Below are positions 26,798-51,939 of a stretch of DNA of 64,000 nt, piece after piece. The translations under genes and the position numbers were made by a program. The stretch covers positions 194,804,001-194,868,000 of the forward strand of contig OZ024742.1 in assembly GCA_964016885.1 (NCBI GenBank). Reading direction: 5' to 3'. This DNA comes from Eledone cirrhosa (lineage: Eukaryota). Position 1 is the stretch's first letter; every line of letters begins with the position of its first letter. A model generated the notes under the pieces. The model searched no databases. It saw only the letters and a program-made list of their open reading frames with translations, and was not told the DNA's origin.

Positions 26798-26841
<44 letters not shown>

Positions 26842-26842
26842 T
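26630..26842. repeat. (ACT)n/(ACC)n/(AAT)n compound microsatellite
   Basis: Directly visible. Confidence 0.97.
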
Positions 26843-29800
26843 TGATTTCATTTATTGGCCACAAGGGCCGACATATAGGGGACAATACAACAGACTGGGA
26901 CAGTGGGGTTTTACAGAAAAATCGAGTAAACAATATGAATAAACAAAGTAACAATAACAAAGTAACAATAAAGTAACAAGAAAATTACAACAAGAAAACA
27001 TTCCCCAATAGGGGGGATGACCACCTAGGGATTCGCTCAGGTACCCCACCAGTCTTAAACGACCCGACGCTTCGAGAGAACCCTGGAAGGGCACCCCTCT
27101 CTTCTTCAAATTTACCTACCTACAGCCGCATGACCAGAGTAGGCCCACTCACACGGGCCATTCTCGCCACATTCACCCACCTTTCAGCAAATGTACTGGG
27201 GGGGGGGCAGCACTTCTCCCTCCACCCTCACCTTCCTTTCCAAGTGAAACTTGAAAAAGTTGATGAGGGATTGGCCGAAGAGAAAAGTGTCTGTCTTCAG
27301 TCCTTTCAACCTCGTCCACCATACAACCTCTTTCGCTACTGCCACCAGACAGAGGAAAATTGACTGCCCTTCCTGGCCAATAGAAGGCAGCGTGTCGATC
27401 TTCACTATGGACTCGGCCGATAGCCGGATCCGTACTACACGCGACAACAGCTGTTCAACATAGCTCCACAAGTCAGTAATGCACGGACACTGGACGAGTG
27501 CGTGCAGAACGGTTTCGTCGCTCTGCGCGCATCTCGAGCAGGTCCGTCTGACAGCACTTCCGTGCCTGTAGAGTTTATCTCGAACCGGTAGTGCGCCCCG
27601 GTAGCACTGCCAAGCGAGGGATTTTTGGAAATTATCCATCGTCCCCGGCTCGAAAGTCCTCCGGTACAGACTGGTTAGTTAGACTTCGTTGACTCCCAGA
27701 GCCTCTCCGAGTGCGTCGTCGCACTTGCCCACCACTAATCCTTTATAGAACTCGAGAGTGGAAGTTCCACTGACCGCATTGACCGCCTGGCAGAGGGCAG
27801 TGAGTGCCTGGCAACAGTCCAGATGTCAGCCACCCAGTCTCGGTCTCTTCTTGACCCAGGACTGCAACTCAGTCAAAGAAACGAGCTGCGGAAAGGCCCG
27901 TCTGACAATCGGCGACCACACTTGTTCACCGTTTAGGCAGAATATCTGGAGATGCCGCAGCCTCAGCGCGTGCCTGCGCATCATTAGCCACGGCATGCCC
28001 AGCCCTCCACGTAGAGGGTGCTGGCAGCAGATGGACCGCCTCACCAGCGGAACCTGACCCCCTCCACAAGAATTTGAAGAGATCCCGCTCCAAGATGGCG
28101 AGGCGCGAACGGGGCAAGGGACGACAGTCAGACGGTAGTAGATGACGGACGCGATGTACGCGTTCGCCACCTCCGCCCGACCTTTTAGTGATAGCTTCAT
28201 CCCAGCCCATTTCTAGGTGAGACTGACTACCCTGCCCGTCACCTCGTCCCAATTCCTATCCACCTGGAGGTCTGGGACGAACCAAACCCCTAGCAACTTT
28301 ACCAGTCCGTCCGTCCAGCGTCTAACCACGCTGTTGGACGGCATGGACTTGCCTCTCCAGGTGCCGAGTTGCAAGTCCATTGACTTTTCCGGGTTAAGTT
28401 TTGCTCCCGACAACCTTTCATATTCCTCCAATAAGTTGCCGACCACCTCGATTTCTGAGGTGTCCGACACCATCACGGTGATGTCATCCGCATAAGCCGA
28501 CACAGCCTTTCCGCGTCCCTGTTTGAGCGGGATGCCCTGCAACAGCTCCATCTTCCGCAGTAAAGGCTCGAGAGTCAATACGTACAGAAGGGACGAGAGA
28601 GGGCACCCTTGACGGACCGATCGGGAGACCTGAAACGGTTCCGAGAGGTGGCCATTAATTTTGACCATCGAGCAGGTGCCGCTGTGCATTGCAATGATCC
28701 AGCTTCTGAAGACGGGGCTGACGCCAGCCGCCTTGAGGACAGCCTCCAGGTACTGATGGTCGACCCTATCGAATGCTTTCGATTGATCTAAATTGATCAG
28801 AGCTCCACCGAAGCCAGGTTTACACCCTACCCTCTCTATGATGTATTGCATTAGATGGAGGTTGTCATATATGGACCTGGTTGGGATTGCGCAAGTTTGC
28901 GCCTCCCCAACCAAATCCCCGACGACAAGCGCCAACCTCTTCGCTAACACCCTGGCCAAAATCTTAAACTCTGAGTTGAGCAGAATTATGGGCCGGAAAT
29001 TGTCTAATGTGTCCCTCTTGTTCTCGTCTTTCCTTATCAGCGTCACTACGCCCCGTCTCACAGAACTGGGAATACTCCCGTTTTGCTGCCAGTTGCAGTA
29101 GAGCGCATCGAGGAGATTGGAGAACAAGTCTTATATATTTACGTAAAGCTCGTAGGGCAGACCATCCAAACCGGGTGACTTGCAACTCATGCAGCCTACA
29201 AGGGCATCCTGAATCTCGGCTGAAGTAATTGGCCTTTCGCAGCGCCCAGCGTCAGCCGTCGAGAGTTGCGGCAAGCCATCGAGGTAGGGACTAAAGTCCG
29301 CCACCATCTCTGACCCGCCACTTCCCCCGAACAACCGAGCAAAATGTTGGCGAAAGGCCTCACACATCCTCTTGGAATCGCTCAGCTCGAGCTCGTCTCC
29401 GTCCGTCAAAGACCGAATTGTGGTTTTATTACCACGCTGCGCCTCTGCCACGCGGGCCCATCGAACAGCTTTGATTCCCTCGTTTCTCAGAGCACGCGCC
29501 TTAGCTCTGACAAGGCAACCTTCGTGTTTCGCATTGAAGAAATGGTCTAATGCCATTCTCGCCGCTAGCACATCAGTTGCAATGCCACTACCAATAGCCT
29601 CGTCTAACTTATCTACCAACTCTCCCTCCTTTCTATTTTTCTCTAATGCTACTTCTTTGCTAAACTTTATCGACATTACTCTAATCTCTCTTTTGAGAGC
29701 CCCTGACCCCCACCACAACCACCACCACCACCACCATCTTTTGTTGACGACTCCCCCTGTCAACTTTTTCTAAACTAAATTGTTGACCTAGTCCCTGTAA

Positions 29801-32718
29801 GCCTTACGTGCCGGAAATGACATGTTTAGGTTCCAGTAACCAGGTCCTAACCTACGCGTCTTATCTAGGTCGACCATACAGATCATAAACTTGTGATCTG
29901 AATAGGCGACCGTTTCAAAACGTGGACAGCTTACACAATTTCTGTCTATTTTCCTAATGAATATCCTGTCTATATACGATCTAGATGACCCTATGCGGTT
30001 AGCCCAGGTCCACACTGGCGCTTTAGGGAAATCTAGTCGGTACCTCTCAGACAGTTGGAACTGGCTGATCAGGTTCTTGAGGCTTTTGCACCCCCCGCTC
30101 CTATCGGATACTCCCACACAGTCCCAGCGTGCGTCTAAGATGCCGTTCCAGTCCCCCGCTAACAGTAAAGGGCGAGACGTACCCAGAAAGGCTTCCAGGC
30201 GTCTAAAGAAGTCCGGCCGTCCTGCCCCAGTAGGAGCATAGACGACCACCAGTCTAAAGGCACCACCTTCATTATTGTTCACGTCCAGGACCACCAACTT
30301 CCCGTCCGGGTCCCGGAAGATCGACCTTACCTCAAGATCCAGACCTTTCCTAAACAGCACTGCCACCCCGCCTCCCATTCCCGGCTGGCTAACAGATGCA
30401 AAGATCTGATAGTTGTCGAAAATGGGGGCTATTGCGCGCGTGTCGGAAATCCTGGTCTCGCTGACTACAATTACATCCATTTCTATAGACCTAAGGTCGT
30501 TGAGCAGGTGACCCTGCTTCCAGGACGATCCCAGGCCTCGAACATTTAAACATCCTACTCTTAATACGGCCATGTTGGCAGGTTAAACAGAGAGAGAGGA
30601 AGGTTTACTTACCTTCCGGGCTCTTGTGAAGGTCGGGTTGTTCGACCTCCATAGTTAGTGGGGTTTCTTTTGGGAACCCGTTTAAAAGTCTTGAAGTGGG
30701 TTTTACGTTCGGGGTTCCCACGTCCCGAAGAAAGCTGTCTCGTATATCTTTGGTATACGAGAAATGTGCTCGATTTAAACATTTCCCCCTCTTTTTGTAT
30801 ATTTTCACTTCGTGCTACGAGGGCCATCAGTTCCTTGTTGGCCCTCCTGACGAGCACGAAGTTTTGTATGTTTTGTTGGTGTGATTTTATTTGTTTGCGT
30901 GGCTGGGGTGGTGATGGTTTTGGTGGTGTTGTTTCGGTTGTATCTGTGTTTGTTGTGAGTGCGATGTCTGTGGTTTCAGATGTTTGTGTGTATATTTGTT
31001 CTTGCGTCTGTTTCGGTTGTTTTCGTTTGGGTGATGGTGATGGTGGTGTTGATGTTGGTGTTATTGGAGAGATGTTTGCGTGAGTGGTGTTTGCGTTTTT
31101 TATTGTGGGTGCTTTTGTGCTTTGTTGAGTTTTTTTTTTCTTTTTGTGTTTCCTTTTTTGTATTTTGGGGGATTTGGGATTTCCCTCATCTTCACTACTG
31201 GTAGATGTGGGGTCTGTGTCTGTAAGTGTGTTTGTATGTATGTTTAAGGTTTTATTGGTGTGTGTATTTTTAGGGGGAGGGGGATTTTGACAGCTTTCCT
31301 CGTTTCCCCCCTCGGTGGTCAATGTTGGTGGTGTTTTTTCTATTGGTGTTGTTGATGGTGGTTTTGCCGGTGCAGATGTTGGTTGTGGTCCTCGCCCCGG
31401 CGTCGGATCGGCAGCAGTGGAGCCTTTCGACCCTTTGCCTCTTTCAACAGTTGAGGGCAGAAGGCTCGCAAATGGGTTTTTTCCCCACAAACAAAACACT
31501 GCGGCCTTTTGCCTTCGGTCATAATGTGAATGACAGTCCCATTCTGAAGTCGGATATGGTCTGGGATTGTCTTCACATTCTCGGGCCTGATCTGGAGAAG
31601 GATCTCCAGGTCAACCCCGGACCACTCCTCTCTGGCCGTTCTGGTCACTTCTATAGGGACTGTATCCGTCCCCTCCACAATCACACATCGCAGAAGCCAC
31701 CACATGTCAAGTCCTGGTGGGATTCTGGGAATGCGGAGACGGGCCGTTCTTTTTCCCATGTGGGAGGGGTACATTATGACCTTGCTGGTTTTGCAAGGAG
31801 TCATAGCGTGTTTCTTAGCGAGGGCTTCTGACTCGAACAACACCGAAATGGTGCCATACTGTCTGCCTCTCTCTATGTACTGGGTGTCTTCTCTGATGCA
31901 CCTCAGCGCGACTTCGACATCTTCTTGTGTGATTAACGCTGCCCTTTTGGTTTGTGCTGAGATGCATCTATAATGCACCGTTTTGCGCTCCACTGCCTCA
32001 ATAGCTTCTACCGGGACAGTTAAGTTGGCCCAAGTTTGCTCTTGCTTGATGAGCTTCCATGCCTGGGCCAACTTTTCATCTTTGTTTGAGAGGTCCATGT
32101 TGAAGCATGGCCTCTTTTTTGCTGCTGCCGCAGCGAAAGTGGTCTTGTTTTCGTTGGGGGTGTTGTTGACGTTGTTCTTGTTGGTGTTGTTGTTAGCACT
32201 GTCGCTGTTATCATTGTTGTCTTTGTTGCCACCGTTGTTCTCGGTGCAGTTGGCATTGTTGCTGTTGGTGTTGTCGCTATTTGTTTTCATGTTAGTGGTG
32301 TTGATATTGTTGTTGTATTTGTTATTTTTTTTTTTATCTGTATTTTCGGTGTAGCTGTTACTGTCATTTTTTCAAAATTAGAGTTCTTATTGATATCATT
32401 GGTGTCTTGGTTTACCTTGTTTGTGGTGGTGTTTGTGTTATCAATGTGTGTTAATTTCGCTGTAGCGCACCTCTCAACTTCTACGTCGTTGTCGCACGAC
32501 AGCCGACATATCGCTGGGGGGCATGGCTCAGCCATGTTTTTTTTCTTCGTAAATTTTTTAATATGTAAAAAAAAGTTCAAATATTTACTTTCCCCTTCAC
32601 GGGGCAAAGTCTAAGGGCTTATATCCCTTACACAACAAGAAATATTTAACAACAAATAATTTAAACAGGCAAATAAAGCGACTTACTGTGAGCGAGCAAA
32701 ATACGTCCGCTTAGACCA
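26843..32718 (-). mobile_element. Full-length disrupted L1/Tx1-like element (T3) inserted in (TAA)n
   Basis: ORF1 (about 30605-32535, EGKRPQCFVCGEKTHLRAFC) and ORF2 (about 27120-30573, APE-RT-ZnF), both with several frameshifts or stops. (TAA)n on both sides. Confidence 0.92.
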
Positions 32719-32730
32719 ATAATAATAATA

Positions 32731-32761
<31 letters not shown>

Positions 32762-32763
32762 TA

Positions 32764-33780
32764 CGACTACAAATTTCAGAAGTCCCATTTACTGCTGAAA
32801 CGGAAAACACAGAAAACACAAAGCAGGTAAAAATAACTGCAAAGAAAGAACTGCTACAGAAACTGGCTAAGAAATGGCAAGAAAAGCCTCTGTATGGAAA
32901 ATACCCAGAAAGAGCTAACAATCCTGATGTTGACAAAACTTTAACCCATCAGTGGTTGGCATCCTCTGGACTGAAATCGGAGACTGAAGGACTGATTATA
33001 TCAGCACAAGATCAGTGTCTGCCAACAAAAAATTACCAAGCCAACATAATAAAAAATGGATGCAGCCCATTATGCCGTGTATGTATAAAACAACCAGAGA
33101 CCATTGATCCTATAATTTAAATGTGCAGTCCTATAGCTCCAACCGAATACCTAAACAGGCATGACAGAGCTGCACAATACATACATTGGATAATGTGTAA
33201 GCATTTTGACCTGCCCCATCTAAAGAATTGGTGGAAGCATCAACCACCTTCCATACTTGAAAAAGATCACATCTCAATCTTGTGGAACTTTAGCATCCAA
33301 ACAGACCGAAAAATAGATGCAAATAGACCTGATATAATACTGAAGGACTTTAAAAAGAGGTTATGCCTGCTAATTGATATATCCGTTCCAATAGACAATA
33401 ATATATCTATAAAAACATTTGAAAAATTGAGCAAGTATAAGGACCTGGAGATAGAAATTGGAAAAATGTGGAAATTGAGAACTAAAACAATACCAGTGGT
33501 TGTAGGCGCTCTGGGAATGATACCTAAGGGGTCTATTGATTACTTATCACAAAACCCAGAAACCAGCGTATAGGAGAAATACAAAAGATAGTACTAATGG
33601 GAACTGCCCATATACTAAGGAAGATTCTGTCAACATAAGTACATCACAAGTCTAAACACCTAAAGATGCATGTGTGTATTTATGTTCTTTCTTGAACATG
33701 GTGGACTTTGTTGTCTCTTGAGGTCACTGGTTGAGAATTGGTGATAACTCATATGAACATAAAGCAAGATAGATACAACT

Positions 33781-33782
<2 letters not shown>
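32764..33782 (+). mobile_element. 5'-truncated R4/Dong-like RLE element (family R-a, copy 2)
   Basis: Highly similar to 42705-43725, with RHD and RPDIILKD..LIDISVP..KLSKYKDL. Premature TAA at 33118. (TAA)n on both sides. Confidence 0.9.
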
Positions 33783-33829
<47 letters not shown>

Positions 33830-34090
33830 TTTCTTTATTAACCACAAGGGTTTACATAAAGTAGACATTAAGGACAGTGCAGGACAATGCAGGACGGTAC
33901 AAATGGGCATTTCTGCGTGTAAAAAAAACAAAAACAGAGGATGTAACAAAAATAACAATGAAAATAACAATGAAAAATTCCCCAATAGGGGGGAGACTTC
34001 GGAGGGACATTTGTGGAGAAAGCCCAGTAAAAAGCCACAATGACCCTGACCACCAAGGCAAGTGCCCTCTCCCAGTTTTCCACCTTTAGT

Positions 34091-37000
34091 TTACAGATAT
34101 ATACTCAGAGTCGGCCCATTCACTCGGGCCATTCTTGCTTCTCTCACCCATCTTTCAACAAAATGCTGGGAAGAGAGCACTTCCTTCTCTACTCTGATTT
34201 TCCTTTTCAAATGAAATTTGAAAAAGTCAATCAGAGCATCACCGAAGAGGTAAGTGCTCGTCTTCAGCCCTTTCAAACGTGTCCACCATACTATCTCTTT
34301 CGCCATGGCCACCAGACAGATAAAAACTGCCTGCCCTTCCCGGCTAAAGGAGGAGGGCGGGGCAATCCTCACGATAGACTCAGATGATAGCTGGATCCGT
34401 CCTAAACGCGACAGCAGGTGTTCGACATAAACCCACAAGTCAGCAATTTTCGGACACTGGACGAGTGCGTGCAGGACGGTTTCGTCGCCCTGCGCGCATC
34501 TCGGACATGCCCGGCTGACGGCACCTCCATGCCTGTAGAGTTTATCCCGAACTGGCAAGGCTCCTCGGTAGCACTGCCAGGCCAGAGATTTCTGGAAGTT
34601 GTCCATAGGCCCCGGCCCGAAAGTTCTTCCGAAGAGATTGGCTAGTTGATTTTCGTCGACGCCTAGAGTTTCCCCAAGTACGTCGTCGCTCTTCCCCTCC
34701 ACTAATCCTCTATAGAACGCCGAGGTGGAGTTTCCACCGATCACATTGCCCGATTGGTCGAGGGCTGTGAGCGCCTGAAGACATTCCAGTCTCCAGGCGC
34801 TCCCTCTCGGTCTTCGCTTGACCCAGGACTGCAGCTCCGTCAAGGAAACGAGCTGGGGAAAAACGCGTCTAGCAAACGGCGACCACACCTGATAACCGTC
34901 GAGGAAGAGGTGGAAATGTCGTAGCCTGAGCGCGTGCCTGCGCATCATCAGCCACGGCATGCCCAGCCCTCCACGTAGCGGGTGTTGACAACAGATGGAC
35001 CGCCTGACCATCGGAGCACGTCCCTTCCACAAAAAGCGAAAGAGCAAACGCTCCAGCGCAGTCAGGCGAGGCTTAGGACAAGGTACGACGGTTAGGCGGT
35101 AGCAGATGACAGACGCGATGTACGCGTTAGCCACCTCCGCTCGACCTTTCAGGGATAGCTTCCTCTCCGCCCATTTCTGGGTGAGAGAAGCCAACCTGCT
35201 CGTCACCTCGTCCCAGTTTTTGTCCGTCTGGAGGTCCGGACCGAACCAGACCCCTAGCAATTTAACCGGTCCGTCCGTCCAGCGCCCGACGACGCTGTTG
35301 GACGGCATGGACCTGCCTCTCCAGGTGCCGAGCTGCAGGCCCACTGACTTTTCCTGGTTGATCATTGCTCCTGTCACCGCTTCGTATTCTCTTAGTGTAG
35401 TGCCGATCGCCTCGATGTGTTTGGCGTTCGACACCACTACGGTGACATCGTCCGCATATGCTGACACGGATCTTCCGCATCCTAGTTCGCGCGGGACTCC
35501 CCTCAACGTCTCCAGTTTGTGCAGTAATGGCTCGAGAGTCAATACGTACAAGAGGGACGAGAGGGGACATCCTTGGCGGACCGAGCGCATGATGTTGAAC
35601 GGTTCCGACAGGTGACCGTTCACTCTCACCACAGAGCAGATGTCGCTGTGCATGGCAGCGATCCAGCCTCTGAAGACGGGCCCAAAGCCAGCCGCCCTCA
35701 GGACTGCCGCTAGGTAACGATGATCGACCCTATCGAAAGCTTTCGACTGATCTAAATTGATCAAGGACCCACCCGTGCCAGGTTCCCTAGCTACCCTCTC
35801 TACGATGTATCGCATGAGGTGGAGGTTGTCGTGGATGGATCTGTCGGGAATGGCGCATGTCTGCGCCTCTCCCACCAGACCACCAACGACAAGCGCCAAC
35901 CTCTTTGCTAGCACCTTGGCCAAAATCTTAAACTCTGTGTTTAGCAGAGTTATGGGCCGGAAATTGTCTATGTTATCCCCCTTGTTCGGATCCTTTCTCA
36001 GCAGTGCCACCGCTCCTCGGCTCACAGAACTGGGAATTCTCCCGTTCTGTTGCCAGTTGCAGTAGACGTCCGCCAAGAGGCCTCCGAACAAGTCTGGCAT
36101 CTGTACGTAAAGTTCATAGGGCAGACCATCCAAACCAGGCGATTTACCCCTTGTGCAGCCAGTCATTGCCTCCCTTACTTCAGCGGCTGTTATCGGCTTT
36201 TCGCAACACTTCGCCTCAGTGGCCGAGAGCCGCGGCAGTCCGTCGAGGTAGACACTAAAGTCCATCCCTCTACCCGGCCCACCGCTGCCCCCGAACAGCT
36301 GAGCGAAGTGTCGCTGAAAAGCTTCACACATTTGCCCGGGATCGAGTAGCATGCGCCCGTCGTGGTCCACCAAAGACCGGATCGTGGCTTTGTTGCCACG
36401 ACGCGCCTCCGCCACTCGGGCCCATTGAACGGCTTTCGTCCCCTCGTGTCTGAGAGCACGCACCCTAGCTCTGACAACGCAGCCTTCGTGCTTTGCATTG
36501 AAGAATTGGTCAAGGGCCAATTTCGCCGCAAGCACGTCGGTCGCAATGCCTTTGCTAAGCGCCTCGTCTAATTTTCTAACTAGTTCTCCCTCTGCTCTAT
36601 TTTTCTCTATTGCTAAAGCCTTACTAAACCTAATCGATTCTATTCTAATCGCTCTTTTCAGAGCAAACCACCACTTGTTGTTGACGATGGCCCCCGTCAA
36701 CGCCCGCTTAACTAGTTCGCTAATCCGGTCTCTGTAGGCCTTGCGCGCTGGTAAGGACGCGTTTAGCTTCCAGTAGCCGGGTCCTCGTCTATGAAGCCTA
36801 TCTAAGTCAAGCACACAGATCACGAATTTGTGGTCCGTGTAGCTGACTATCTTGAATTGTGGACAGCCTATGCTAGACCTATCTATTTCCCTACAAAATA
36901 CTCTATCTAGATATGATCTGGATGACCCTATGCGGTTTGTCCAAGTCCACATTGGCACATTCGGGAAATCCAATCGGTACCTGTCAGACAGTTCAAAACG

Positions 37001-37510
37001 CCTGAGCAGGTTGGTGAGGCTCTTGCACCCTCCACCCCTATCCGCTAATCCCACACAGTCCCAGCGTGCATCTAAGATCCCGTTCCAGTCGCCCACTAAC
37101 ACTAAAGAGCGGGACGTTCCAAGAAAGGTCTCCAGACGCCGGAAGAAATCAGGCCGCCCTGCTTCTGTCGGGGCATAGACGGCCACTAGCCTGAAAGCTT
37201 GCCCGTCTCCGCTGGTCACGTCCAGCACCACCAGCTTACCCTCTGGGTCCAGGAAGATGGCCCGTATGGCGAGATCCAAACCTCTCCGAAAAAGCACAGC
37301 AACTCCTCCACCGGATCCAGGACGGCTGGGAGATGCGTACACATCGAAGCCACCGAAGATCGGTGCGAAGGCCCGTGCTTCGGAGATTCTGGTCTCGCTG
37401 ATGGCCACTACATCTATGTTTAGTGACCTGAGGTCGTTGAGCAGGTGACCCTGCTTCCATGACGACCCCAAGCCACGCGCATTTATGCTGCCTATTCTGA
37501 GTGAGGTCAT
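34091..37510 (-). CDS. T4 ORF2: APE endonuclease, reverse transcriptase and CCHC zinc finger (1139 aa)
   Basis: SINARGL, ISETR, VYAP, GDWN, SYLDR, TDHK, FRPITLLN, LDQSKAFDRVDH, RQGCPLS, AYADD, CPRC..ETVLHALVQC. Confidence 0.95.
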   Translation of the reverse strand: MTSLRIGSINARGLGSSWKQGHLLNDLRSLNIDVVAISETRISEARAFAPIFGGFDVYASPSRPGSGGGVAVLFRRGLDLAIRAIFLDPEGKLVVLDVTSGDGQAFRLVAVYAPTEAGRPDFFRRLETFLGTSRSLVLVGDWNGILDARWDCVGLADRGGGCKSLTNLLRRFELSDRYRLDFPNVPMWTWTNRIGSSRSYLDRVFCREIDRSSIGCPQFKIVSYTDHKFVICVLDLDRLHRRGPGYWKLNASLPARKAYRDRISELVKRALTGAIVNNKWWFALKRAIRIESIRFSKALAIEKNRAEGELVRKLDEALSKGIATDVLAAKLALDQFFNAKHEGCVVRARVRALRHEGTKAVQWARVAEARRGNKATIRSLVDHDGRMLLDPGQMCEAFQRHFAQLFGGSGGPGRGMDFSVYLDGLPRLSATEAKCCEKPITAAEVREAMTGCTRGKSPGLDGLPYELYVQMPDLFGGLLADVYCNWQQNGRIPSSVSRGAVALLRKDPNKGDNIDNFRPITLLNTEFKILAKVLAKRLALVVGGLVGEAQTCAIPDRSIHDNLHLMRYIVERVAREPGTGGSLINLDQSKAFDRVDHRYLAAVLRAAGFGPVFRGWIAAMHSDICSVVRVNGHLSEPFNIMRSVRQGCPLSSLLYVLTLEPLLHKLETLRGVPRELGCGRSVSAYADDVTVVVSNAKHIEAIGTTLREYEAVTGAMINQEKSVGLQLGTWRGRSMPSNSVVGRWTDGPVKLLGVWFGPDLQTDKNWDEVTSRLASLTQKWAERKLSLKGRAEVANAYIASVICYRLTVVPCPKPRLTALERLLFRFLWKGRAPMVRRSICCQHPLRGGLGMPWLMMRRHALRLRHFHLFLDGYQVWSPFARRVFPQLVSLTELQSWVKRRPRGSAWRLECLQALTALDQSGNVIGGNSTSAFYRGLVEGKSDDVLGETLGVDENQLANLFGRTFGPGPMDNFQKSLAWQCYRGALPVRDKLYRHGGAVSRACPRCAQGDETVLHALVQCPKIADLWVYVEHLLSRLGRIQLSSESIVRIAPPSSFSREGQAVFICLVAMAKEIVWWTRLKGLKTSTYLFGDALIDFFKFHLKRKIRVEKEVLSSQHFVERWVREARMARVNGPTLSIYL

Positions 37511-37545
37511 GTTTAAAATAGAGTGGAAAAGATGGGAAAGACCAC

Positions 37546-39672
37546 TTACCGTACTTTTGGTAGAGGAGGGATGGTTTTTACATCCCTTTTCACTTGATCG
37601 TCTGGTGAAGGGACCGTTGAATCGTCCCTTCGGCTGGTCGTCGGCTCTTCTAAGAGAATGTCTGAGTATACTCTTCGATTGATGGTTCCTCCTAGGTCCC
37701 TGAAATCACCAACTGCGTTGGGGAATTTCGTTTTAATGTTTGTGTATTGTTTCTGTGCTATTTTTAGCAGTCTTATGTTAGTTGGCGTTTTGATTGGTGC
37801 TGGTATTATGTAGTCCTGTTGTGAAATGTCTGTGTGTTCAATTATGTAAGTCATTAGTTTCTTGTTGTGTGTGTTTATTGCCGTGCATTTGTTTTTCTGG
37901 GGGTGGGGTGTGGTTCTGCTATTTTCTTGTCGTTGTTGCTGGGTGTGTGTGTTTTGTTGTTGTGTTTGCGATGTTGGTGCTTGTGGTGGTGGTGTTGAAG
38001 GTGTTGTTGGCGGTGGGGTTGTCGCCGGTGGTGATGGGGGTGCTGGTGTGGGTGGTGATGGTGTTGGTGGTGTTGCTGCTGTGGGTCTCTTTGCAGTAGA
38101 CTTTACCCTTTTCTCATTTCTTTCCTCCCTTTTCAAAGGCGACGATGCGCTGCTTCTGCGTTTGTGCCTTCTTGCGACCTTTTGCCATCCCTCTCCCACC
38201 TCACACTCCATGTCTGATTCTGTAAGGTCGGGGAGGGGTACCAGCTCCACTCTTTCACTTGTTGTTGTTGGTGATGTTTGCACTGGAGTCTCTGTTGCAG
38301 CTGCATTTGGTATTGCTGTTGTTGTTGTTAATATTTCTACTGCTGCTGGTGTCTTTGATTTCCGTGGAGTGGGTATGGGTGCCACGGACCTATCGTTCCT
38401 GGTTGCCGCTTGTCCTGTTGCTGGTAGCCGTGGAGCCGGATTCGGAAGGAGGGGGGTTTTCTCCTTTCTCAGGGTCTTCTCGTTGCAGAAGGCCCTGAGG
38501 TGAGTCTTCGATCCACAGCGAAAGCATTTCGGGCGTTTGCCCTCAACACTTATGGGCAGTTGAGTGCCGTTATCGAAGTCTATCACATCCGGGATAGCTT
38601 CGATGCACTCCTGGTTGGTTTGGATTAGCATCTCAATGGAGGAGCCGACCCAATCTTCTCTTACTTTTTTCTGTACTTGCAGTACAGTTGTTTTGTCCTC
38701 GATTCCGACGAGGACAGACGCGGCCAGCCAAGAAGGGGTCATTCCGGGGGGGACGTGGGTCAGTTTGACCCTCACAATTTTTTGCCCGCAGTAGGAGGGC
38801 ACCAACACCATTTCCTCGCTCCTTAGGGTCACTACTGATTGGGCCTTTGCCTCCTGGGGTGTGGCAAAAAGTACGTCTACGGTGGCGTATTTTTTGCCTC
38901 GGGTGATGTGCGTTTTCCTCTGCCACACAGACCCCAAGGCTTTTTGTATTTGGGCCTCTGTGGCTCTTTCCACCCTACGGGATTTTGTACTTACTGTACA
39001 GTACGTGACCGTACAGTGCTCTTGGGTTTCGAAAAAATTTTTCGCTGCCTTGCAGATTGCTCGGTGTCCGTTCTTTGTCACCATCTTCTTCGCTTCCTCT
39101 AATTCCTCATTTGTTATGAGGATTGTTTCCAAGTTTTTCGCAATACCTGCAAATGAGATTGGTTTTTCTCTGCTGTTGTTGTTGTCGTCAGAGCTGCTGG
39201 TACTTTTGTTGCTGCAGGTACTACGACTACTGCCTCCGCCGCTGTTGCTGTGGTTGTTGTTGGTGTTGCTGCTGCTAATGCTGTTGTTGTTTATGCTGCT
39301 GGTGATGCTGTTGCGGCTGCTACTGTTGTTTTCATTGTCACTGTTGCTGTTGTTATTACGGCTGCTACTGCTATTATTCCTGACGTCAGACGAATGAACT
39401 GGGTTTTCGTATTTCCCGCACACCTGTTTCGTCGCTGTCGTCGTCGTCGTGGAGAAACCTTGCACGCTTTGCACGAGACTTTTCTTTTCTTTCGTCGCTT
39501 GCGAAAGAGAAGGGAGGGAGAGAGACACATTTAAAGAAGGGAGGGAGAGAGACAATCTTCTCTCTGCTGTAGTGATGATTGAGGAAGAAGAAGACGGAAT
39601 GAGTGGGAGTGACGTATGAAATTTCTTTTTGGTAGCCATGTTTTTTTGTTTAAAATGAAATTTTGGGTACAA
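37546..39672 (-). CDS. T4 ORF1: nucleic-acid-binding gag-like protein with CCHC knuckle (start uncertain, probably ATG at 39639)
   Basis: EGKRPKCFRCGSKTHLRAFC, with an Asn/Ser-rich N-terminal tract and a Pro/Thr-rich C-terminal tract. Lies upstream of ORF2. Confidence 0.85.
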   Translation of the reverse strand: MYPKFHFKQKNMATKKKFHTSLPLIPSSSSSIITTAERRLSLSLPSLNVSLSLPSLSQATKEKKSLVQSVQGFSTTTTTATKQVCGKYENPVHSSDVRNNSSSSRNNNSNSDNENNSSSRNSITSSINNNSISSSNTNNNHSNSGGGSSRSTCSNKSTSSSDDNNNSREKPISFAGIAKNLETILITNEELEEAKKMVTKNGHRAICKAAKNFFETQEHCTVTYCTVSTKSRRVERATEAQIQKALGSVWQRKTHITRGKKYATVDVLFATPQEAKAQSVVTLRSEEMVLVPSYCGQKIVRVKLTHVPPGMTPSWLAASVLVGIEDKTTVLQVQKKVREDWVGSSIEMLIQTNQECIEAIPDVIDFDNGTQLPISVEGKRPKCFRCGSKTHLRAFCNEKTLRKEKTPLLPNPAPRLPATGQAATRNDRSVAPIPTPRKSKTPAAVEILTTTTAIPNAAATETPVQTSPTTTSERVELVPLPDLTESDMECEVGEGWQKVARRHKRRSSASSPLKREERNEKRVKSTAKRPTAATPPTPSPPTPAPPSPPATTPPPTTPSTPPPQAPTSQTQQQNTHTQQQRQENSRTTPHPQKNKCTAINTHNKKLMTYIIEHTDISQQDYIIPAPIKTPTNIRLLKIAQKQYTNIKTKFPNAVGDFRDLGGTINRRVYSDILLEEPTTSRRDDSTVPSPDDQVKRDVKTIPPLPKVR

Positions 39673-39881
39673 AACCCCAATAACTGGTTATTTAACCCCG
39701 AAGGGCCAAATAACGGACAGAAAGACCCCTCTCACGAGGAGGAGGGTGTCTTTATCAACAATTTGGTTCAAGTTTTAAACAATTTACAATTGTTTTAACG
39801 GTTAAAAATTACTATACCTTACAGAGCCGAGCCTCCGTCAACCATGGCATTCAATAATAATAATAATAATAATAATAATAA

Positions 39882-40400
39882 TTCCAAATCCTTTTCACCT
39901 CCCACTTTAGGTCCTGGTATCGGTTAATTTTCTCCCTCTCCTTCTCTTGCACTCTCGTGTCGAACGGGCAGGCCACATCCACAATCAGGCACGATCTTTT
40001 TTCTGTGTCCACAACCACCAGGTCAGGTCTATTGTGTTCCAGTTTTTTGTCCGTCTGTATCCTAAAATCCCACAGCACCTTCACCTGATTGTTCTCCATC
40101 ACCGCCTCTGGCCTATGCTCATACCATTTCTCAGAATGTGGTAGATTGTTGGAACTGCCATGAAGTCAAAGTGATCCCGATTGTCATAGGCGCACTGGGG
40201 ACTATCTCCAAAAGTTTCCAGGGATGGTTAAAGAAAATCGGCCCCTTCACGCTTTTTGGAACGCTTCAAAAGGCATGCTTGCTTGGAACAGCAAGAACCC
40301 TCCGATACGTCCTGAATATCTGAGGCTGCAGGTAGTGGCTTGATATTCAATCCAACGGACTTTCCAGTTAACCAACATCAATGACTGAGATTCAAGGAAT
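39882..40400 (+). mobile_element. R4/Dong-like fragment (family R-b) with 5' inversion
   Basis: 39882-40150 is antisense (HNRPDLVVVD..VKRIWN) and 40149-40323 is sense (WNCHEVKVIP..YVLNI*). (TAA)n on both sides. Confidence 0.88.
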
Positions 40401-40409
40401 AACAATAAC

Positions 40410-40445
<36 letters not shown>

Positions 40446-43400
40446 CCCAGGGTTGGGGCGGAACCACTGGCAACAGAACAAATTAAAGAAAGGATCGAAA
40501 AAGTGGAGGGAGTGAATGCTCAAGATGAAACTCCAAATGAAAATTATGAGATCGTAAATGATAAAGAAATGAATGAGAATGAACTTGCCAACTTGAAGGA
40601 TGAAATTATGATCGAATGGATGAAAATGAAAGAATCTGACATGGAGAAACGAGACACCCTCCCTAAGATCCAGAACTCCAAACAGAACCAAAAGATAATA
40701 CACAAGAATAACATAATTCTCAAAAACATTATCATCACAAACAAACTAAACATTACTGATTTAAATCATCTCTATTATGCATCGGCTAAAGTCACCACTC
40801 ACTTATGTGGAGTGAAGATGAAAAAAAAAAGGAATTCCCACAAGAAATCTACTTGGCAAGAGAACATCAATCGCCAAATAAACCTTCTCCGATCTGACAT
40901 AGAAATTTTAACAAACTATAAAATAGGTGAACATGTTAAACAAACTAAACTTAGAAAATTGAAAAGAAAGTATAGTATAAAATCAACAAGTGACATAGAC
41001 ATGCTGATAGAAATAATCAAGCAAAAAGTGTCGGCCAAAGCTGCTCGTATAAGGCGCTTTGAAAACGATCTAGATTCTATAAGGACAATAGTATGTTCAA
41101 AAACAACCAAAGAAACTTCTACAGAAAAATTGGTAAGTCAACAATAACTGCTAAATCAATACCACCCAAGGAGGAAGCGCAAGAATTCTGGGAAAAGATC
41201 TGGGCCGAAGAAAAAGTTCATAATATACATGCCCCATGGATAGACAGACAAATGAAAGATATAGCTCACCTTGAGGAACAAATATGGGAAAACATAACAG
41301 TTGAACAGTTGCGCTTGGCTCTAAGAAAAACCAGCAAATGGAAATCCCCAGGAAAAGACAAAATACAAAATTTTTGGATAAATGCCTTCACAGAGTCTCA
41401 TGAGCTGTTAGCCCAACTTTACAATGAAATAGTTAAGGAGCCAGAAAAGATACCATCATGGCTAGTTAACGGCATTACATTCCTGCTTCCGAAGAATGAT
41501 GAGACAAACAATTCCAAAAATTACAGACCGATAACTTGCTTGACCACAATGTATAAAATGTTAACATCAGTCCTAACTGAATACACATATGACCACCTGA
41601 TAACAAATGACCTATTTCCCATTGAGCAGAAAGGGTGTAAACGAGGCTCATATGGCTGTAAGGATCAGCTTTTGGTTAACAAAATGATACTGGAAGATTG
41701 TCATAATAGACACAAAAATCTATCAATTGCTTGGATAGATTATAAAAAAGCATTCGAAAGTTTGCCACACAGTTGGATTGAAAAATGTTTAGAGATTTTC
41801 AAAATATCCCCCGTTGTCAGGAGGTTTTTGTCATTCAGTATGAAGACATGGAAAACGACACTCCTTTTGAATAGTGAAACAAAATCACTGGAAGCTGGAG
41901 AAGTTAATATTAATTGTGGAATTTTTCAGGGTGACTCTTTATCACCGCTTTTATTCTGCATCGCACTTATACCATTAAGTAAAATGCTCAATGAAACAAA
42001 ACATGGATATAGAGTCTATGACAAAACCATTAATCACTTGTTCTACATGGATGACCTGAAACTATTTGCAAAAAATGATGAACAATTGCAAGGGCTATTA
42101 TTCAGTGATGACATTAAAATGGAGTTTGGACTAGATAAATGCGCCAAAGCAACGTTCACCAGAGGAAATCTGCTGAAGAGTTCAGACATTAATCTTGATC
42201 GGGGGAACGTGATAAGAGAACTTGATCAAGAAAAAACTTACAAATATCTAGGTGTTTGTGAAGGAGACGGAATCAAGCACTCGACAATGAGGGAAAGGAT
42301 AAGGAAGGAATGTTACCGTAGAGTAAGAGCAATCTTAAGAACGGAATTGAATGCAAGGAATAGGATCGATGCCATAAACACGCTTGCCATACCAGTAGTA
42401 AACTACAGTTACAATGTCATCAACTGGTCAAGCACAGAGATCCGTAGGCTCAATACAAAAATTCGAAAATTCTTAACCATGCACAGAATGCATCACCCTA
42501 AGGCAGATATAGATAGAATATATCTCCCTAGGAAAGAAGGAGGACGTGGGTTAGTCCAGTTAGACATTGCGTTGAAAACTGCAGCAATTGGATTATCTAC
42601 ATATCTAAGGGAATCACATGATTGGATGATCAAACTCGTTTTGAAACACGAAAGCATCAAAAGATCATATTCCATTACAAAAGATGCACAAAGACACAGT
42701 AATGGACTACAAATTTCAGAAGTCCCATTTACTGCTGAAATGGAAAACACAGAAAAAGCAAAGCAGGTAAAAGTAACTGCAAAGAAAGAACTGCTACAGA
42801 AACTGGCTAAGAAATGGCAAGAAAAGCCTCTGTATGGAAAATACCCAGAACGAGCTAACAATCCTGATGTTGACAAAACTTTAACCCATCAGTGGTTGGC
42901 ATCCTCTGGACTGAAATCGGAGACTGAAGGACTGATTATATCAGCACAAGATCAGTGTCTGCCAACAAAAACTTACCAAGCCAACATAATAAAAAATGGA
43001 TGCAGCCCATTATGCCGTGTATGCAAAAAACAACCAGAGACCATTGACCATATAATTTCAATGTGCAGTCCTATAGCGCCAACCGAATACCTAAACAGGC
43101 ATGACAGAGCTGCACAATACATATATTGGATAATGTGTAAGCATTTTGACCTGCCCCATCAAAAGAATTGGTGGAAGCATCAACCACCTTCCATACTTGA
43201 AAAAGATCACATCTCAATCTTGTGGAACTTTAGCATCCAAACAGACCGAAAAATAGATGCAAATAGACCTGATATAATATTGAAGGACTTTAAAAAGAGG
43301 GTATGCCTGCTAATTTATATGTCCGTTCCAATAGACAAGAATGTATCTATAAAAACATTTGAAAAATTGAGCAAGTATAAGGACCTGGAGATAGAAATTG

Positions 43401-43725
43401 GAAAAATGTGGAAATTGAGAACTAAAACAATACCAGTGGTTGTAGGCGCTCTGGGAATGATACCTAAGGGGTCTAATGATTACTTATTGCAAATCCCAGG
43501 AAACCCGCGTATAGGAGAAATACAAAAGATTGTACTAATTGGAACTGCCCATATACTAAGGAAGATTCTGTCAATATAAGTACATCACAAGTCTAAACAC
43601 TAAAGATGCATGTGTGAGTATGTATGTTCTTTCTTGAACATGGCGGACCTTGTTGTCTCTTGAGGTCACTGGTTGTGACTTGGTGATAACTCGTATGAAC
43701 AGAAAGCAAGATAAATGCAGCTGTA
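40446..43725 (+). mobile_element. R4/Dong-like RLE non-LTR retrotransposon (family R-a), probably 5'-truncated, in (TAA)n
   Basis: ORFs 40503-41147 and 41093-43579 are separated by one frameshift. (TAA)n on both sides. Confidence 0.92.
41093..43579 (+). CDS. Reverse transcriptase, CCHC and restriction-like endonuclease (828-aa remnant of a single ORF)
   Basis: WKSPGKD, YRPITCL, IDYKKAF, GIFQGDSLSPLLF, HLFYMDDLKL, YKYLG, CRVC..HIISMC, RHD, RPDII, KYKDL. Confidence 0.9.
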   Translation: MFKNNQRNFYRKIGKSTITAKSIPPKEEAQEFWEKIWAEEKVHNIHAPWIDRQMKDIAHLEEQIWENITVEQLRLALRKTSKWKSPGKDKIQNFWINAFTESHELLAQLYNEIVKEPEKIPSWLVNGITFLLPKNDETNNSKNYRPITCLTTMYKMLTSVLTEYTYDHLITNDLFPIEQKGCKRGSYGCKDQLLVNKMILEDCHNRHKNLSIAWIDYKKAFESLPHSWIEKCLEIFKISPVVRRFLSFSMKTWKTTLLLNSETKSLEAGEVNINCGIFQGDSLSPLLFCIALIPLSKMLNETKHGYRVYDKTINHLFYMDDLKLFAKNDEQLQGLLFSDDIKMEFGLDKCAKATFTRGNLLKSSDINLDRGNVIRELDQEKTYKYLGVCEGDGIKHSTMRERIRKECYRRVRAILRTELNARNRIDAINTLAIPVVNYSYNVINWSSTEIRRLNTKIRKFLTMHRMHHPKADIDRIYLPRKEGGRGLVQLDIALKTAAIGLSTYLRESHDWMIKLVLKHESIKRSYSITKDAQRHSNGLQISEVPFTAEMENTEKAKQVKVTAKKELLQKLAKKWQEKPLYGKYPERANNPDVDKTLTHQWLASSGLKSETEGLIISAQDQCLPTKTYQANIIKNGCSPLCRVCKKQPETIDHIISMCSPIAPTEYLNRHDRAAQYIYWIMCKHFDLPHQKNWWKHQPPSILEKDHISILWNFSIQTDRKIDANRPDIILKDFKKRVCLLIYMSVPIDKNVSIKTFEKLSKYKDLEIEIGKMWKLRTKTIPVVVGALGMIPKGSNDYLLQIPGNPRIGEIQKIVLIGTAHILRKILSI

Positions 43726-43726
43726 C

Positions 43727-43756
<30 letters not shown>

Positions 43757-43757
<1 letters not shown>

Positions 43758-44827
43758 CTATTGACTATCTACAACATGTTCCACAAGAGGAGTGATATCG
43801 ATAGACTCTACTTAAGGAGACTGAAGGTGGAAGAGGTCTTATCAGCATAGAGGACTGTGTTCAGATGGAGAAAAACAATCTGCACAAATACGTGACTAAC
43901 AGTAGGGAGCCAATGCTCAGAATTGTACTGAAGGAGAGGACAATAGACAAGGGGATGTCCAAGGAGGAAATAACAACAAGGAGGAAGAACAACCTTCATG
44001 AAAAATCCCTTCATAGTACCTTATTTGAATAAAATGAATTTAGAGATCCACAGACATGGAACTGGTTGAAAAGAGGAGACCTTAAAAAGGCTACAGAAGG
44101 AATGCTTATTGCTGCGCAAGAGCAGGCCCTCAAAACGAAGTAGGTGAAACACCATATTTACAAGGAGGAGGCTAACCCACTGTGTAGGATCTGTGGAGAG
44201 AGAGAGGAGACTGTGGCTCACATTGTATCCGAGTGTAAACACCTAGCCCAGACTCACTATAAAGGCTGGAGACATGATGTGATGGGCAGGGTGATCAACT
44301 GGCACCTATGCAAAGTAAATAATTTACCACATTGTGAGAAGTGGTATGAGCATAAGCCAGAGTCGGTGATAGAAAACGATCAGGTGAAGGTACTGTGGGA
44401 TTTTAGGATACAGACGGACAAGAATCTGGAACACATTAAACCTCACCTGGTGGTTTTGGACAAGGAAAAAAGATCGTGCCTGATTGTAGATGTAGCCTGT
44501 CCATTCTACACGAGAGCGCAAGAAAAGGAGAGGGAGAAAATTAACCGATACCAGGACTTAATGTGGGAGGTAAAAAGGATTTGGAACTGCCATGAAGTCA
44601 AGGTCGTCCCGATTGTCATAGGCGCACTAGGTACTATCTCAAAGAGTTTCCAAGGATGGTTAAAGAAGATTAGTCCAGCCCCGCTTTTTGGAACACTCCA
44701 AAAGGCATGCTTCCAAGAACCCTCCGATACGTCCTGAATATCTAAGGCTGCAGGTAAGCGGCTTGATATTCATTTCAAACAATCTTTCCAGTTAAATAAC
44801 ATCAATGACTGAGACTCAAAGAATAAT
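43757..44827 (+). mobile_element. 5'-truncated, decayed R4/Dong-like element (family R-b, copy 2)
   Basis: FHKRSDIDRLYL, CRICGEREETVAHIVSEC, WRHD, LIVDVACP. The 3' UTR matches 40324-40400. Confidence 0.88.
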
Positions 44828-46727
44828 GATTTCTTTATTGGCCACAAGGGTTAACATTACAGAACAAAAACATTACAGACTGCACAGAACAGTAGAGGAC
44901 GATACAAAGGGGGTTTTGGTCGTGTAAACAGGTTATAACAAAATAGAAATCGGGATAGAAATGAAAAAAATAAAACAACAAAAATTCCTCAAAAAGGGGA
45001 AACCTCCAAGAGTCACTCGTGGCGAAAACCACACGAAACACCAAGGCCACCCTGACCACCAGGACAAGGGCCCTCTCTCAGTTTTCCACTCCTCAGTCGA
45101 CAGGCGCATACTCAGAGCGGGCCCGTTCACTCGGACAAGACACGCCACTTTCACCCACCTTTCAACAAACTTACTAGAAGACAGCACTTGCCTCAAGTGA
45201 AACTTGAAAAAGTTAATCAAGGATTGGCCGGAGAGGAAAGTGTCCGTCTTCAACCCTTTCAACCTTGTCCGCCACACATTCTCTTTCGCCATGGCCACCA
45301 GGCAGATGAAAACTGCCTGCCCTTCATCCTCTTTAAAGGAGGATGGCGAGGCTATCTGCACAATGGACTCAGTCGATAACCGGATCCATCCTACACGCGA
45401 CAGCAGCTGTTCGACATAGCTCCACAAGTCAGCAATCGTCGGGCACTGAACGAGTGCGTGCAGGACAGTTTCATCGCCCTGCGCGCATCTCGGACAGACT
45501 CGGCTGACAGTACCTCCGTCCCTGTAGAGCTTATCCCGAACCAGTAACGCTCCCCGATAGCACTGCCAGGCCAGGGATTTCTGGAAGTTGTCCATAGGCC
45601 CCGGTCTGAAGGTTCTCTCTTCCCATTCTCTGTATTTGCAGTATGGTGGTCTTCTCCTCGATTCCAGCAAGTACAGACGCGGCCAGCCAAGGTATGGGCA
45701 CGTCGGGCGGGACCTGGGTCACTTTAACCCTCACAATTTTCTGTACGCAGTAGGAGAGCACCAAGACTATCTTCTCACTTTTTAGGGTTTCCAAAGAGTG
45801 AGACTTCGCCTCTTGTTGGGGTGACGAAAACTACGTCTACTGTGGCGTACTTTTTGCCTCGAGTGATGTGGGTTTTGCGCGCCCAGACGCACCCCAAGGC
45901 CTTTTGGATTTGAGCCTCCGTGGCCCTCTCCACCCGATGTGAAATTTTGCTTACGGTGCTGTAAGTCACCGTGCGCAGCTGCTGTTCTTTGAAGAAATCG
46001 GGTGGAGATTTCATCTCCTCCTCCGTGACTAGCCCTGTCTCTATATTTCGGGCCACATCTGCGAAAGAAATGGCCCCTTTTTCACTGGCACCATTATTGC
46101 TGCCGCTACTGCTGCTACTGGTCTTGTTGTTGGTGCTGTTGCTGTTACTACTGCTACAAACGGTGTTGTTGGTGTTGTTATTATCACTGTTGTAGTTGGT
46201 TATGTTTTTGGTGCCAACGTTGTTGTTGTTTTCGGTGCAATTTCTATTGTTGCTGTTGGTGTTGTCGTTGTTTATTTTCTTAATGGTGTTAATATCGTTG
46301 TTGCATTTGTTGTCATTTTTTTATGTTGTCTGTATTTTGGTTGTCGCTGCTATTGTTGTAGTTGGTGTGGTATTTTTTTTTAAATTAGTGTTCTCAGTGT
46401 TGTCTTTGTTCACGTTGTTTGTGATGGTGTTTGTTGTATCTATTTCTGTAACCCTCCTCTCAATTTTTACGCCGTTGTCACACGACAGCAGACATATTGC
46501 TGGGGAGCGTGGCTCAGCATGTTTTTTTTTATGTTTAAAAGTAAAATGCTCAAATATTGTTGTAATATTTGGACCAAAAGGCTCAAATATTATACTTTCC
46601 CCTTCACAGGACAAAGTCGAAGGGCTTATATCTCTTACACAACAAGAAAAATTAAAGAACAAATAATTATAACAGGTAAATAAAGCGACTTACTGGGAGC
46701 GAGCAAAAAGACGTCCGAACAGACCAA
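44828..46727 (-). mobile_element. Internally deleted Tx1-like element (T5)
   Basis: 5' UTR similar to T3. ORF1 core HITRGKKYATVDV as in T4, joined at about 45615 to ORF2 RTFRPGPMDNFQKSLAWQ..ZnF. 3' end AATAAAGAAATC. Confidence 0.88.
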
Positions 46728-46729
46728 TG

Positions 46730-48112
46730 AAATAACAGTAAATATAGCCAGCAAACCAAGATTATTATATTAGAAAAGAACCAATGAGCTCTACGAAAAG
46801 TCTATTTTATGTATGGATTGTCTCCATCATACACATTTATTTGTTAACACTTGAACCACCACAAGCGAAATATACAACAGCTTGAAAATAAGCCAGAATA
46901 CTGAGAGTTTACAACCAAAACAAAGTCGAAGGGAAGAAATATATACTAATGAAGAAAGAATAAGGATGCATGTAAGTAACATGAAATTTATCAGTTGTAT
47001 TACAAGGGTTTATATTATAAAAATTGCGAAAGATTTATATAAAGGAATCATATAGATCTAGGATCTTCGTTCTTCAAATTTAAGAAAACAATTGTACGAA
47101 GACAGATCCGCGCAAAAACGTACAAATTTAGAAACTCAAAGACCGATACCTACCAAAAGTGATAACATTCTAAATGATGGGTAGGGTTTTACCCCTCAGG
47201 TACAACAAATATAATGAAAAAACATAAATGGATACATGAGGAATATGGTTCGATGTTACATGCATATTTTACGGCAACACTATACCCTAGAAATGATAAC
47301 ACAACATACAAATATGAAATCTACCAGAAAACAATCCCCACACTGATATAAACCTCGACTCCAAAAAATTTAAAGAGATACATAATAAGAATCAAACAAA
47401 ATATCAGAAATGGAAATGGAGCAGTGAAAAGAACAAATACACAATGAAAACTCAAATAACGAATATATATATATATTGAGATTTTAAAACATGAAGAAAA
47501 AACTAACATATCCAAAACAAACAAAGTTAACAACAAAATACAATAAATATCAACACTAAAAGACATAAAAAATACTAATCAATAAAAACAAATTCAAGAG
47601 AACACAACCAGAAAGAAATATGAAGAGAATATTGTACGAAAAAGAAACCATAAAGACGAAACTCAAAATCACAAGCTGGAAATAATCCAAGAACTCCAAA
47701 CAGTCGAAGATCTTCCATGGAACAAAGAATAAATATCCCAAAGATAAAATAATAATAAATTAACAACAAATATAAAGAATGCTAATCTAGCCATCATAGA
47801 GTTAATAAACACGAATAAGAACATTGGTATCACAAGGTTAAATAATATATTATATGCAGCAGACACTATTACAAAAGAAAGTGGGTACATCCTTTGATCT
47901 ATACAATCAAGAAAAAGAAACACACAAACATGGCAATAAAAGACACAAAAAGATAGTAAATGAAATAAAAGACGATTCAATAGAAAAGAAAAGAACAAAA
48001 CTAGGAACAGGAAAGAAAATAAAAATACTAAATATATATATATATAACAGAACAGAAAAGGAAATCCCGGAGACTGAAGAATGCCTAAAACAACAAATAT
48101 TTGCAATTGCAT
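46730..48112 (+). mobile_element. Highly decayed N-terminal region of an R4/Dong-like element (tentative)
   Basis: A-rich strand. At about 47830 it reads ITRLNNILYAA, resembling ITDLNHLYYAS of ORF 40503-41147. Confidence 0.4.
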
Positions 48113-51560: not shown

Positions 51561-51939
51561 AGGAGAAAGAATTTCGTTTTGGTGATTATGTTTCAACCAA
51601 TCTATCAGTTCTTCCCGATGTTATGAACAAAAATAAAATTAAAATAGAAATTAAAATACAAAAAGAAAAAGATTCAAAATCGGATAATTAAAAATGTTTT
51701 TCCCATAATTAATGACTTGTACTGTTATATAATTAAAGCATTCATTAACTCCAGAACGAATATGTCTGCTACAAGTATTAGAATATAAATGTAGTAATTA
51801 AATTGTATCTATATTAATTATATTGTATGTGTATTAATTATGTTGTTTATATCTTCATTACAAGGATTAATTAAAAAGATCTACTCAACAATGTATTTTT
51901 TAAATTTGGTTTTTTCACTTCAAAATGTTAGGTAATTTT

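Follow-up and report, generated by a model that had tools for sequence, protein, structure and literature searches.

APE-type and RLE-type LINEs share (TAA)n microsatellites in opposite orientations in the genome of Eledone cirrhosa

Introduction

A 64,000-nucleotide stretch of the genome of the octopod Eledone cirrhosa (assembly GCA_964016885.1, contig OZ024742.1, here C3, forward-strand positions 194,804,001 to 194,868,000; hereafter the window, whose own numbering is used for features within it) contains a train of seven long interspersed elements (LINEs) that lie end to end, for the most part with only (TAA)n between them. The elements belong to two classes, i.e., those with an apurinic/apyrimidinic endonuclease (APE-type; named T) and those with a restriction-like endonuclease (RLE-type; named R), and the two classes point in opposite directions. 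How do two kinds of element come to share one microsatellite, each in its own orientation, and to build a mixed array in it? Since APE and RLE are non-homologous, the shared target is convergent. From flanks, polarity, clustering, duplicated spacers and arrays marked by interrupted repeats to which no tail was added, we show that both classes occupy (TAA)n in opposite ways. Very probably they do so by nicking opposite strands of a tract that is rebuilt at each insertion, with mixed trains as the outcome.

Results

Both classes lie in (TAA)n, with opposite polarity

Counts of elements and of their flanks across the genome show that the train is not a chance arrangement. The 3' ends of T4, the intact T element of the train, and of the families R-a and R-b were counted by exact sequence patterns in the 3.0-Gb genome, which gave 3,534 ends for T4, 4,146 for R-a and 7,570 for R-b. 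An in-phase (TTA)3 stood directly before 2,407 of 2,490 T4 5' ends (96.7%), and AATAATAAT, the repeat of opposite polarity, tested in one phase, stood before 0 of 2,490; (ATT)3 followed 2,933 of the 3,534 3' ends (83%). Flanks at both ends exceed the level of more than 20% of one type that is used to call target specificity in the portion of the literature drawn on here (PMC4494074). For the R elements, 60 loci were read by eye, leaving out apparent ends that ran past the edge of the locus or reflected internal deletions. Of the true 5' junctions that remained, TAA-rich tracts adjoined 14 of 15 in R-a and 12 of 15 in R-b.

The two classes are also found together. Among the matches listed for C1 0-56.9 Mb, an R end lay within 7 kb of 23 of 56 T4 ends, relative to 2.2 expected, and all 23 of these near pairs were opposite in orientation, with none on the same strand; at 15 kb, 30 of 32 T-R pairs were opposite. 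By the same count, T-T pairs were on the same strand (17/17), as were R-a/R-b pairs at 7 kb (22/23), and in 40 stretches centred on T4 every R match was opposite to T4 (28/28). The original prediction held that a T lineage uses the other strand of the microsatellite targeted by R, and the flanks and polarity support this: T4 5' ends without the in-phase (TTA)3 are a small minority, and orientation relative to the repeat is not random.

Some 38,400 TAA tracts in the genome match a six-unit pattern. Among the first 30 of these, 18 lay next to a T(-) or R(+) element, and at none did a neighbour face the wrong way, except for two matches to a short interspersed element (SINE) fragment that lies within the R-a leader; a T or R neighbour was likewise present at 21 of 30 T4 5' ends. 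Because most of the long TAA tracts sampled already flank T or R elements, the clustering needs no preference for arrays as such. An abundant SINE-like repeat with a sense-strand (TTA)n end often lies next to T4 insertions (window 60108-60227 and 58319-58438; loci L018, L296, L298 and L343), and may seed new target tracts.

The train in the window

The coordinates of the train were re-derived (Table 1), and the seven elements proved to stand end to end in the order and on the strands that had been claimed, with no element breaking into the body of another. The claim that each junction is only (TAA)n held at six junctions, where tracts of 9-15 units are present, but the junction at 44822 retains just AATAAT. 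Likewise, strict opposition of the two classes describes the order of elements, but not the inverted first 268 bp of one R-b piece, which is locally on the T-element strand; this inversion resembles twin priming (5' inversion), known from L1. The tracts at 32720 and 39855 lie between two 5' ends, and so cannot be 3' tails. In T5, a deletion has fused ORF1 to the end of ORF2 at 45616 (ORF, open reading frame). There is no TAA tract at 46730, the right edge of the train as first drawn. Beyond it are a single weak R-like match (47211-47339, +, E 3e-5) and T-like pieces (48145-51565, -), with the polarity of the train elements, and the train likely extends in decayed form to about 51.6 kb.

Table 1. 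Features of the mixed T/R train, in window coordinates (RT, reverse transcriptase; UTR, untranslated region)
Feature	Position	Strand	Remarks
(TAA)14 tract at T3 3' end	26798..26839	.	degenerate (ACT)n before it, 26631-26799
T3, full-length APE-type LINE carrying stop codons and frameshifts	26842..32719	-	ORF2 70% identical to T4 ORF2
TAA4-TAG-TAA9 tract	32720..32761	.	flanked by two 5' ends
R-a, 5'-truncated RLE-type LINE	32762..33781	+	zinc knuckle and part of RLE
(TAA)15 tract	33782..33826	.	tail-to-tail junction
T4, intact 6,027-bp APE-type LINE	33828..39854	-	
T4 ORF1, 697 aa	39639-37549	-	
T4 ORF2, 1,139 aa	37510-34094	-	APE-RT-zf-RVT
(TAA)9 tract	39855..39881	.	head-to-head junction
R-b 3' fragment	39882..40400	+	first 268 bp (39883-40150) inverted
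(TAA)11 tract	40412..40444	.	beyond CAA/TAA end of R-b
R-a, 3.3-kb 5'-truncated copy, one frameshift	40445..43723	+	97% identical to full-length 4.9-kb copy with 1,216-aa ORF
(TAA)10 tract	43727..43756	.	
R-b, 5'-truncated RLE-type LINE	43757..44821	+	C-terminal part 36% identical to R-a
Remnant junction, AATAAT only	44822..44827	.	
T5, 1.9-kb APE-type LINE, internal deletion	44828..46728	-	5' UTR 75% like T3; 5' end without TAA tract
Likely decayed train continuation	46730..51565	.	weak R-like N-terminal piece (+), T-like ORF2 pieces (-)

The two kinds of element

T4 ORF2 matched Exo_endo_phos, RVT_1 and zf-RVT in Pfam, and its best PDB match was human L1 ORF2p (E 5e-52, residues 5-854), with R2 at E 1e-21. 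In the alignment to L1 the APE catalytic motifs are in place. By inspection, ORF1 of T3 and T4 contains CX2CX4HX4C; Pfam zf-CCHC fell below the cut-off in ORF1 of T1 and T2, two further T families in the window, and gave no match in ORF1 of T3 and T4. Separate ORF1 and ORF2, the latter with APE, RT and a C-terminal zinc finger, are the architecture of the Tx1 clade, and T4 has it. Among named proteins, the closest homolog of T4 comes from Argonauta hians (73% in the RT). No named Tx1 protein was among the database matches of T elements, and look-ups in the ESM Atlas and in protein clusters returned no Tx1 or Dong names. By its sequence features the T group thus appears to be L1/Tx1-like, a label taken from architecture and nearest relatives. 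Of 39 distinct young full-length T4 copies, chosen because they best matched the 5' end, both ORFs were retained in 31, and the mean distance was 34 substitutions in 6 kb, which suggests present activity of T4. Another family, T6 (L227, L232, L234-L237), is flanked by TTA and has T4 ORF2 behind a different 5' UTR and ORF1. This modular exchange has its break close to T4 position 2261.

Full-length R-a is 4.9 kb long and has one ORF of 1,216 aa in L390 and L393. The ORF matched RVT_1 in Pfam and exclusively R2 proteins in PDB, and contains knuckle, RHD, PD..D and K..KY motifs, those of the zinc knuckle and the RLE. R-a therefore carries the R4/Dong hallmark set of a single ORF, RT, zinc knuckle and C-terminal RLE, and R-a and the second RLE family, R-b, are both found in sense-strand (TAA)n, the polarity of Bombyx Dong. 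For an N-terminal Myb-like domain there was no Pfam match in R-a, and an ESM Atlas lead to a Rap1 Myb cluster stayed under the bar (0.87 against 0.9). For a hepatitis delta virus-like ribozyme at the 5' end, Rfam scans, made with no custom descriptor, found no ribozyme family and only sub-threshold matches to simple repeats; no named R4, Dong or Rex6 was among the 120 matches listed for R proteins. Both families may be described as Dong-like by these features. The idea of R-b as a fixed 1.07-kb non-autonomous unit was rejected, since genome copies extend further upstream.

Full-length R-a begins with a variable 1.1-kb 5' leader containing TAA remnants and a SINE fragment (L130, L134, L137, L140, L150, L381-L399), possibly captured from an upstream array. 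At C28:114.44-114.46 Mb (L386-L387, L400) four full-length R-a copies are in tandem, with a 4,955-bp period and short TAA tracts between them. Another RLE family, ~31% identical to R-a and with one open frame of 1,174 codons, forms a train with sense-strand (ACAT)n between its members (window 1-1764 and C3:194.794-194.804 Mb; L401:9200-10000, L402). Two open frames of the window, 16980-17612 (-) and 58784-59530 (+), resemble pieces of Penelope-type reverse transcriptase, judged by eye from their motifs.

Sister families have other targets and other endonuclease loops

T1 (window 1818-7563, -) and T2 (7650-10088, -) are sister APE families in sense-strand (TCTA)n. Runs containing TCTA lay upstream of 28 of the 30 best T1 5' ends, the other two having only TA, and the 5' junctions of T1 and T2 are heterogeneous, unlike those of T4. 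A T1-related family is present at one position of a ~70-bp satellite (L178-L183, L239-L240 = C1:4.226-4.260 Mb, L271, L274, L289, L290). Genome-wide, a 3' motif shared by the T group had 35,358 matches, compared to 72 for a control pattern, and a search for the T endonuclease gave 37,747 candidates; these counts point to a large T radiation with several targets. In a quick ORF2 tree, with three rows under half filled, with unnamed, turtle, fish and Argonauta rows, and with targets not assigned for Argonauta and P0001, a derived clade with support 100 united the (TCTA)n, (TCTG)n and satellite families, and the TTA families were basal. The endonuclease hairpin loop reads NRIG in T3, T4 and T6; T1 has NHSG, the sole TCTG copy NYSG and the satellite family NRSG. 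The part of PMC1950540 drawn on here implicates this loop in L1/Tx1L specificity. The match of loop to target among the T families is a correlation over few independent lineages.

These families bear on the most serious alternative to strand-specific nicking, which we consider unlikely: that the endonuclease is relaxed and most of the targeting is due to pairing of the RNA primer at nicks or unwound (TAA)n, with the RNA 3' end (AUU versus UAA) rather than the nuclease fixing the polarity. T4 3' junctions do show microhomology between the element end and the target, and insertion leaks into TTC, TTG and TAC repeats. The argument, in the same part of PMC1950540, that DNA structure is what the L1 endonuclease recognizes, and that nicks can be filtered by pairing of the RNA with the target, would fit as well. 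However, sister families whose 3' motifs are nearly alike have other targets, and their hairpin loops differ; nor is there a long tail to pair.

Marked arrays record the rebuilding of the target

An array at C1:441.08-441.14 Mb is marked by interrupted repeats: it has ten T4 starts, and between them are interrupted spacers that repeat the upstream flank letter for letter and carry no extra ATT. Six of the spacers are 49 bp long, one is 34 and one 28, and a further one follows a 3'-truncated copy. Since no tail was added in such arrays, the 3' tract is target. The pattern of copied spacers recurs at C1:57.09-57.10 Mb, L357 and L368. New T4 copies land upstream of older T4 and the spacer is duplicated, so that the regeneration of target by insertion, which had been predicted, is seen directly in these marked arrays.

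Same-family tandem trains might also have arisen mainly through unequal crossing-over and gene conversion that followed a single insertion, rather than through serial retrotransposition, a reading to which we give a rather low probability. It would account for the constant 49-bp spacer, for the near-identical copies ARR3 and ARR4 of the marked array and for identical copies at C2:28.18-28.20 Mb. Against it, the nine complete copies of the marked array fall in several subfamilies, and their origin as a single clade was rejected (p-AU 0.007, quick tree); crossing-over also has to contend with three spacer lengths and a 3'-truncated copy, and mixed trains of unrelated T and R families, as in the window, cannot result from it.

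5' ends and the origin of the flanking repeat

A set of 40 T4 stretches was chosen for interrupted 3' flanks, comprising 25 full-length copies, 12 truncated copies and 3 unresolved. Three of the 12 truncated copies had target duplications with interrupting letters, measuring 8, ~14-16 and 18 bp. In 23 of the 25 full-length copies, two being mutual duplicates and nine lying at TTA/TTC boundaries, the 5' TTA run was free of interrupting letters, and the two exceptions were directly upstream of another T4. On this set we rejected the idea that every T4 copy has a fixed 16-bp target duplication. The 5' run had at least five TTA units in 48 of 49 T4 copies. Because full-length copies always start in TTA, even where plain duplication would not give it, a (UUA)n leader on the RNA is likely, and some of the TTA at the 5' end of full-length T4 probably arrives with the RNA; alternatively, it may come from nicking within the tract plus a very short duplication.

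Several observations weigh against insertion of both classes into a rebuilt (TAA)n target. (ATT)3 is missing at 17% of T4 3' ends. Among the first 30 T4 3' ends by position, 13 belonged to 5'-truncated copies, whose 5' junctions, read by eye, were at TTA in 6, at TAC/TTC repeats in 2 and at no repeat in 5. No clear duplication was present in the other 9 of the 12 truncated copies with interrupted flanks. Among the matches listed, 2 of 32 T-R pairs at 15 kb were on the same strand, and so was the T piece in 1 of 11 stretches with full-length R-a and a T piece, where it lies beyond a SINE (L399). Lastly, some adjacent copies of the marked array are near-identical (ARR3/4 and a cluster of ARR6-8), so that a degree of local duplication or gene conversion is likely there. 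T4 targeting is strong but leaky.

The five truncated copies with no upstream repeat would also be expected if the repeats were borne by the elements, as a 3' tail and a co-transcribed 5' repeat, with untargeted insertion and clusters in permissive chromatin; so would the retention by full-length T4 of at least five TTA units at the 5' end even where the 3' flank is interrupted. We nevertheless hold this to be very improbable, as marked arrays and off-target copies have no added ATT tail, truncated T and R junctions mostly still abut the repeat, and permissive chromatin would not yield 23/23 opposite and 17/17 same-strand pairs among the matches listed. That the train is an assembly artefact is scarcely credible, for although the region is highly repetitive, its members are 36-97% alike rather than identical, the same junction types occur at thousands of loci, and contigs from a public run, which may not be independent of the assembly, join the 5' end of T4 to the TAA tract.

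Discussion

In target-primed reverse transcription, the nicked strand sets the orientation of the element. For insertion of both classes into (TAA)n by opposite nicks, we infer the nicked strands and the RNA leader as follows. The T endonuclease would nick the (TAA)n strand, with priming at the T 3' end (...GAAATC, then ATT) and no tail added, and the R endonuclease would nick the (TTA)n strand. A truncated T4 insertion would leave an 8-18-bp target duplication. Full-length T4 would complete its insertion when a (UUA)n RNA leader, or the element's own 5' end, pairs with the target; this would restore at least about five TTA units, and upstream of an older T4 the whole spacer would be duplicated. 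Each insertion would thereby split one tract in two and add units, leaving both flanks usable by either class. In the part of PMC3774820 drawn on here, R2 RNAs with 28S leaders give a precedent, in that leaders containing target sequence anneal and yield uniform 5' junctions; together with the TTA start of full-length T4, this would make annealing of the cDNA by way of a UUA leader the simplest reading.

A broader proposal is offered more tentatively, as a possibility that we would not yet bet on. An as yet undescribed octopod APE radiation may have split microsatellites among closely related sister families, on (TTA)n, (TCTA)n, (TCTG)n and a satellite, through few endonuclease changes, with the TTA branch sharing a Dong-like target; given an R2-like leader, the two classes would make each other's sites, and with them most of the long (TAA)n of a 3-Gb genome. 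The data suggest that many TAA microsatellites of this genome are kept up by retrotransposition. The APE endonucleases of the T families, young and intact, ~30-35% apart and with different targets, form a natural series, so that how APE-type LINEs change specificity becomes testable. The locus also presents two non-homologous nuclease classes on one repeat, with opposite polarity and outside telomeres, and an element that inserts precisely, mostly at full length, into a repeat that is abundant is relevant to retrotransposon-based gene insertion.

Comparison with known systems was made with the parts of the cited papers drawn on here. Dong, of the R4 clade, targets TAA in Bombyx, Anopheles and Biomphalaria (PMC3812793), and in Bombyx a junction primer places sense-strand (TAA)n upstream of its 5' end (PMC3774820); further sources on RLE clades are PMC4640811 and PMC5678591. 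Compared by description, R-a resembles Dong in its single ORF, RT, zinc knuckle, RLE and upstream sense-strand (TAA)n, and is unlike it in its 1.1-kb 5' leader, with no ribozyme by Rfam. Kibi, Koshi and crocodilian Tx1 elements are APE elements with two ORFs and targets (TC)n, (TTC)n, (TTCC)n and (TTTC)n, and tandem SINEU-3 copies sandwich target duplications (PMC4494074). T4 is likened to Kibi and Koshi by architecture and by its specificity for a microsatellite, and differs in the target itself, (TTA)n/(TAA)n, with sisters in (TCTA)n and a satellite. In Octopus vulgaris, families of L1-Tx1 and Dong-R4 are annotated as recently active (PMC13282606), i.e., both classes are present as in the Eledone train, and the annotation, as far as drawn on here, mentions no target sites or shared arrays. 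A literature search, with Repbase and key supplements outside its scope, turned up neither an APE element on (TAA)n nor joint Tx1/Dong arrays. The closest precedent is TRAS and SART, two LINE families that share one telomeric repeat of Bombyx in opposite orientations and form mixed arrays (PMC10088271). Like T and R, they divide a tandem repeat by orientation; however, both are of the R1 clade, with one type of endonuclease, and telomeric, whereas T and R bring together APE and RLE at an interstitial trinucleotide repeat and at thousands of loci. Within the literature searched, an APE family on (TAA)n, with a target common to an RLE class, is new.

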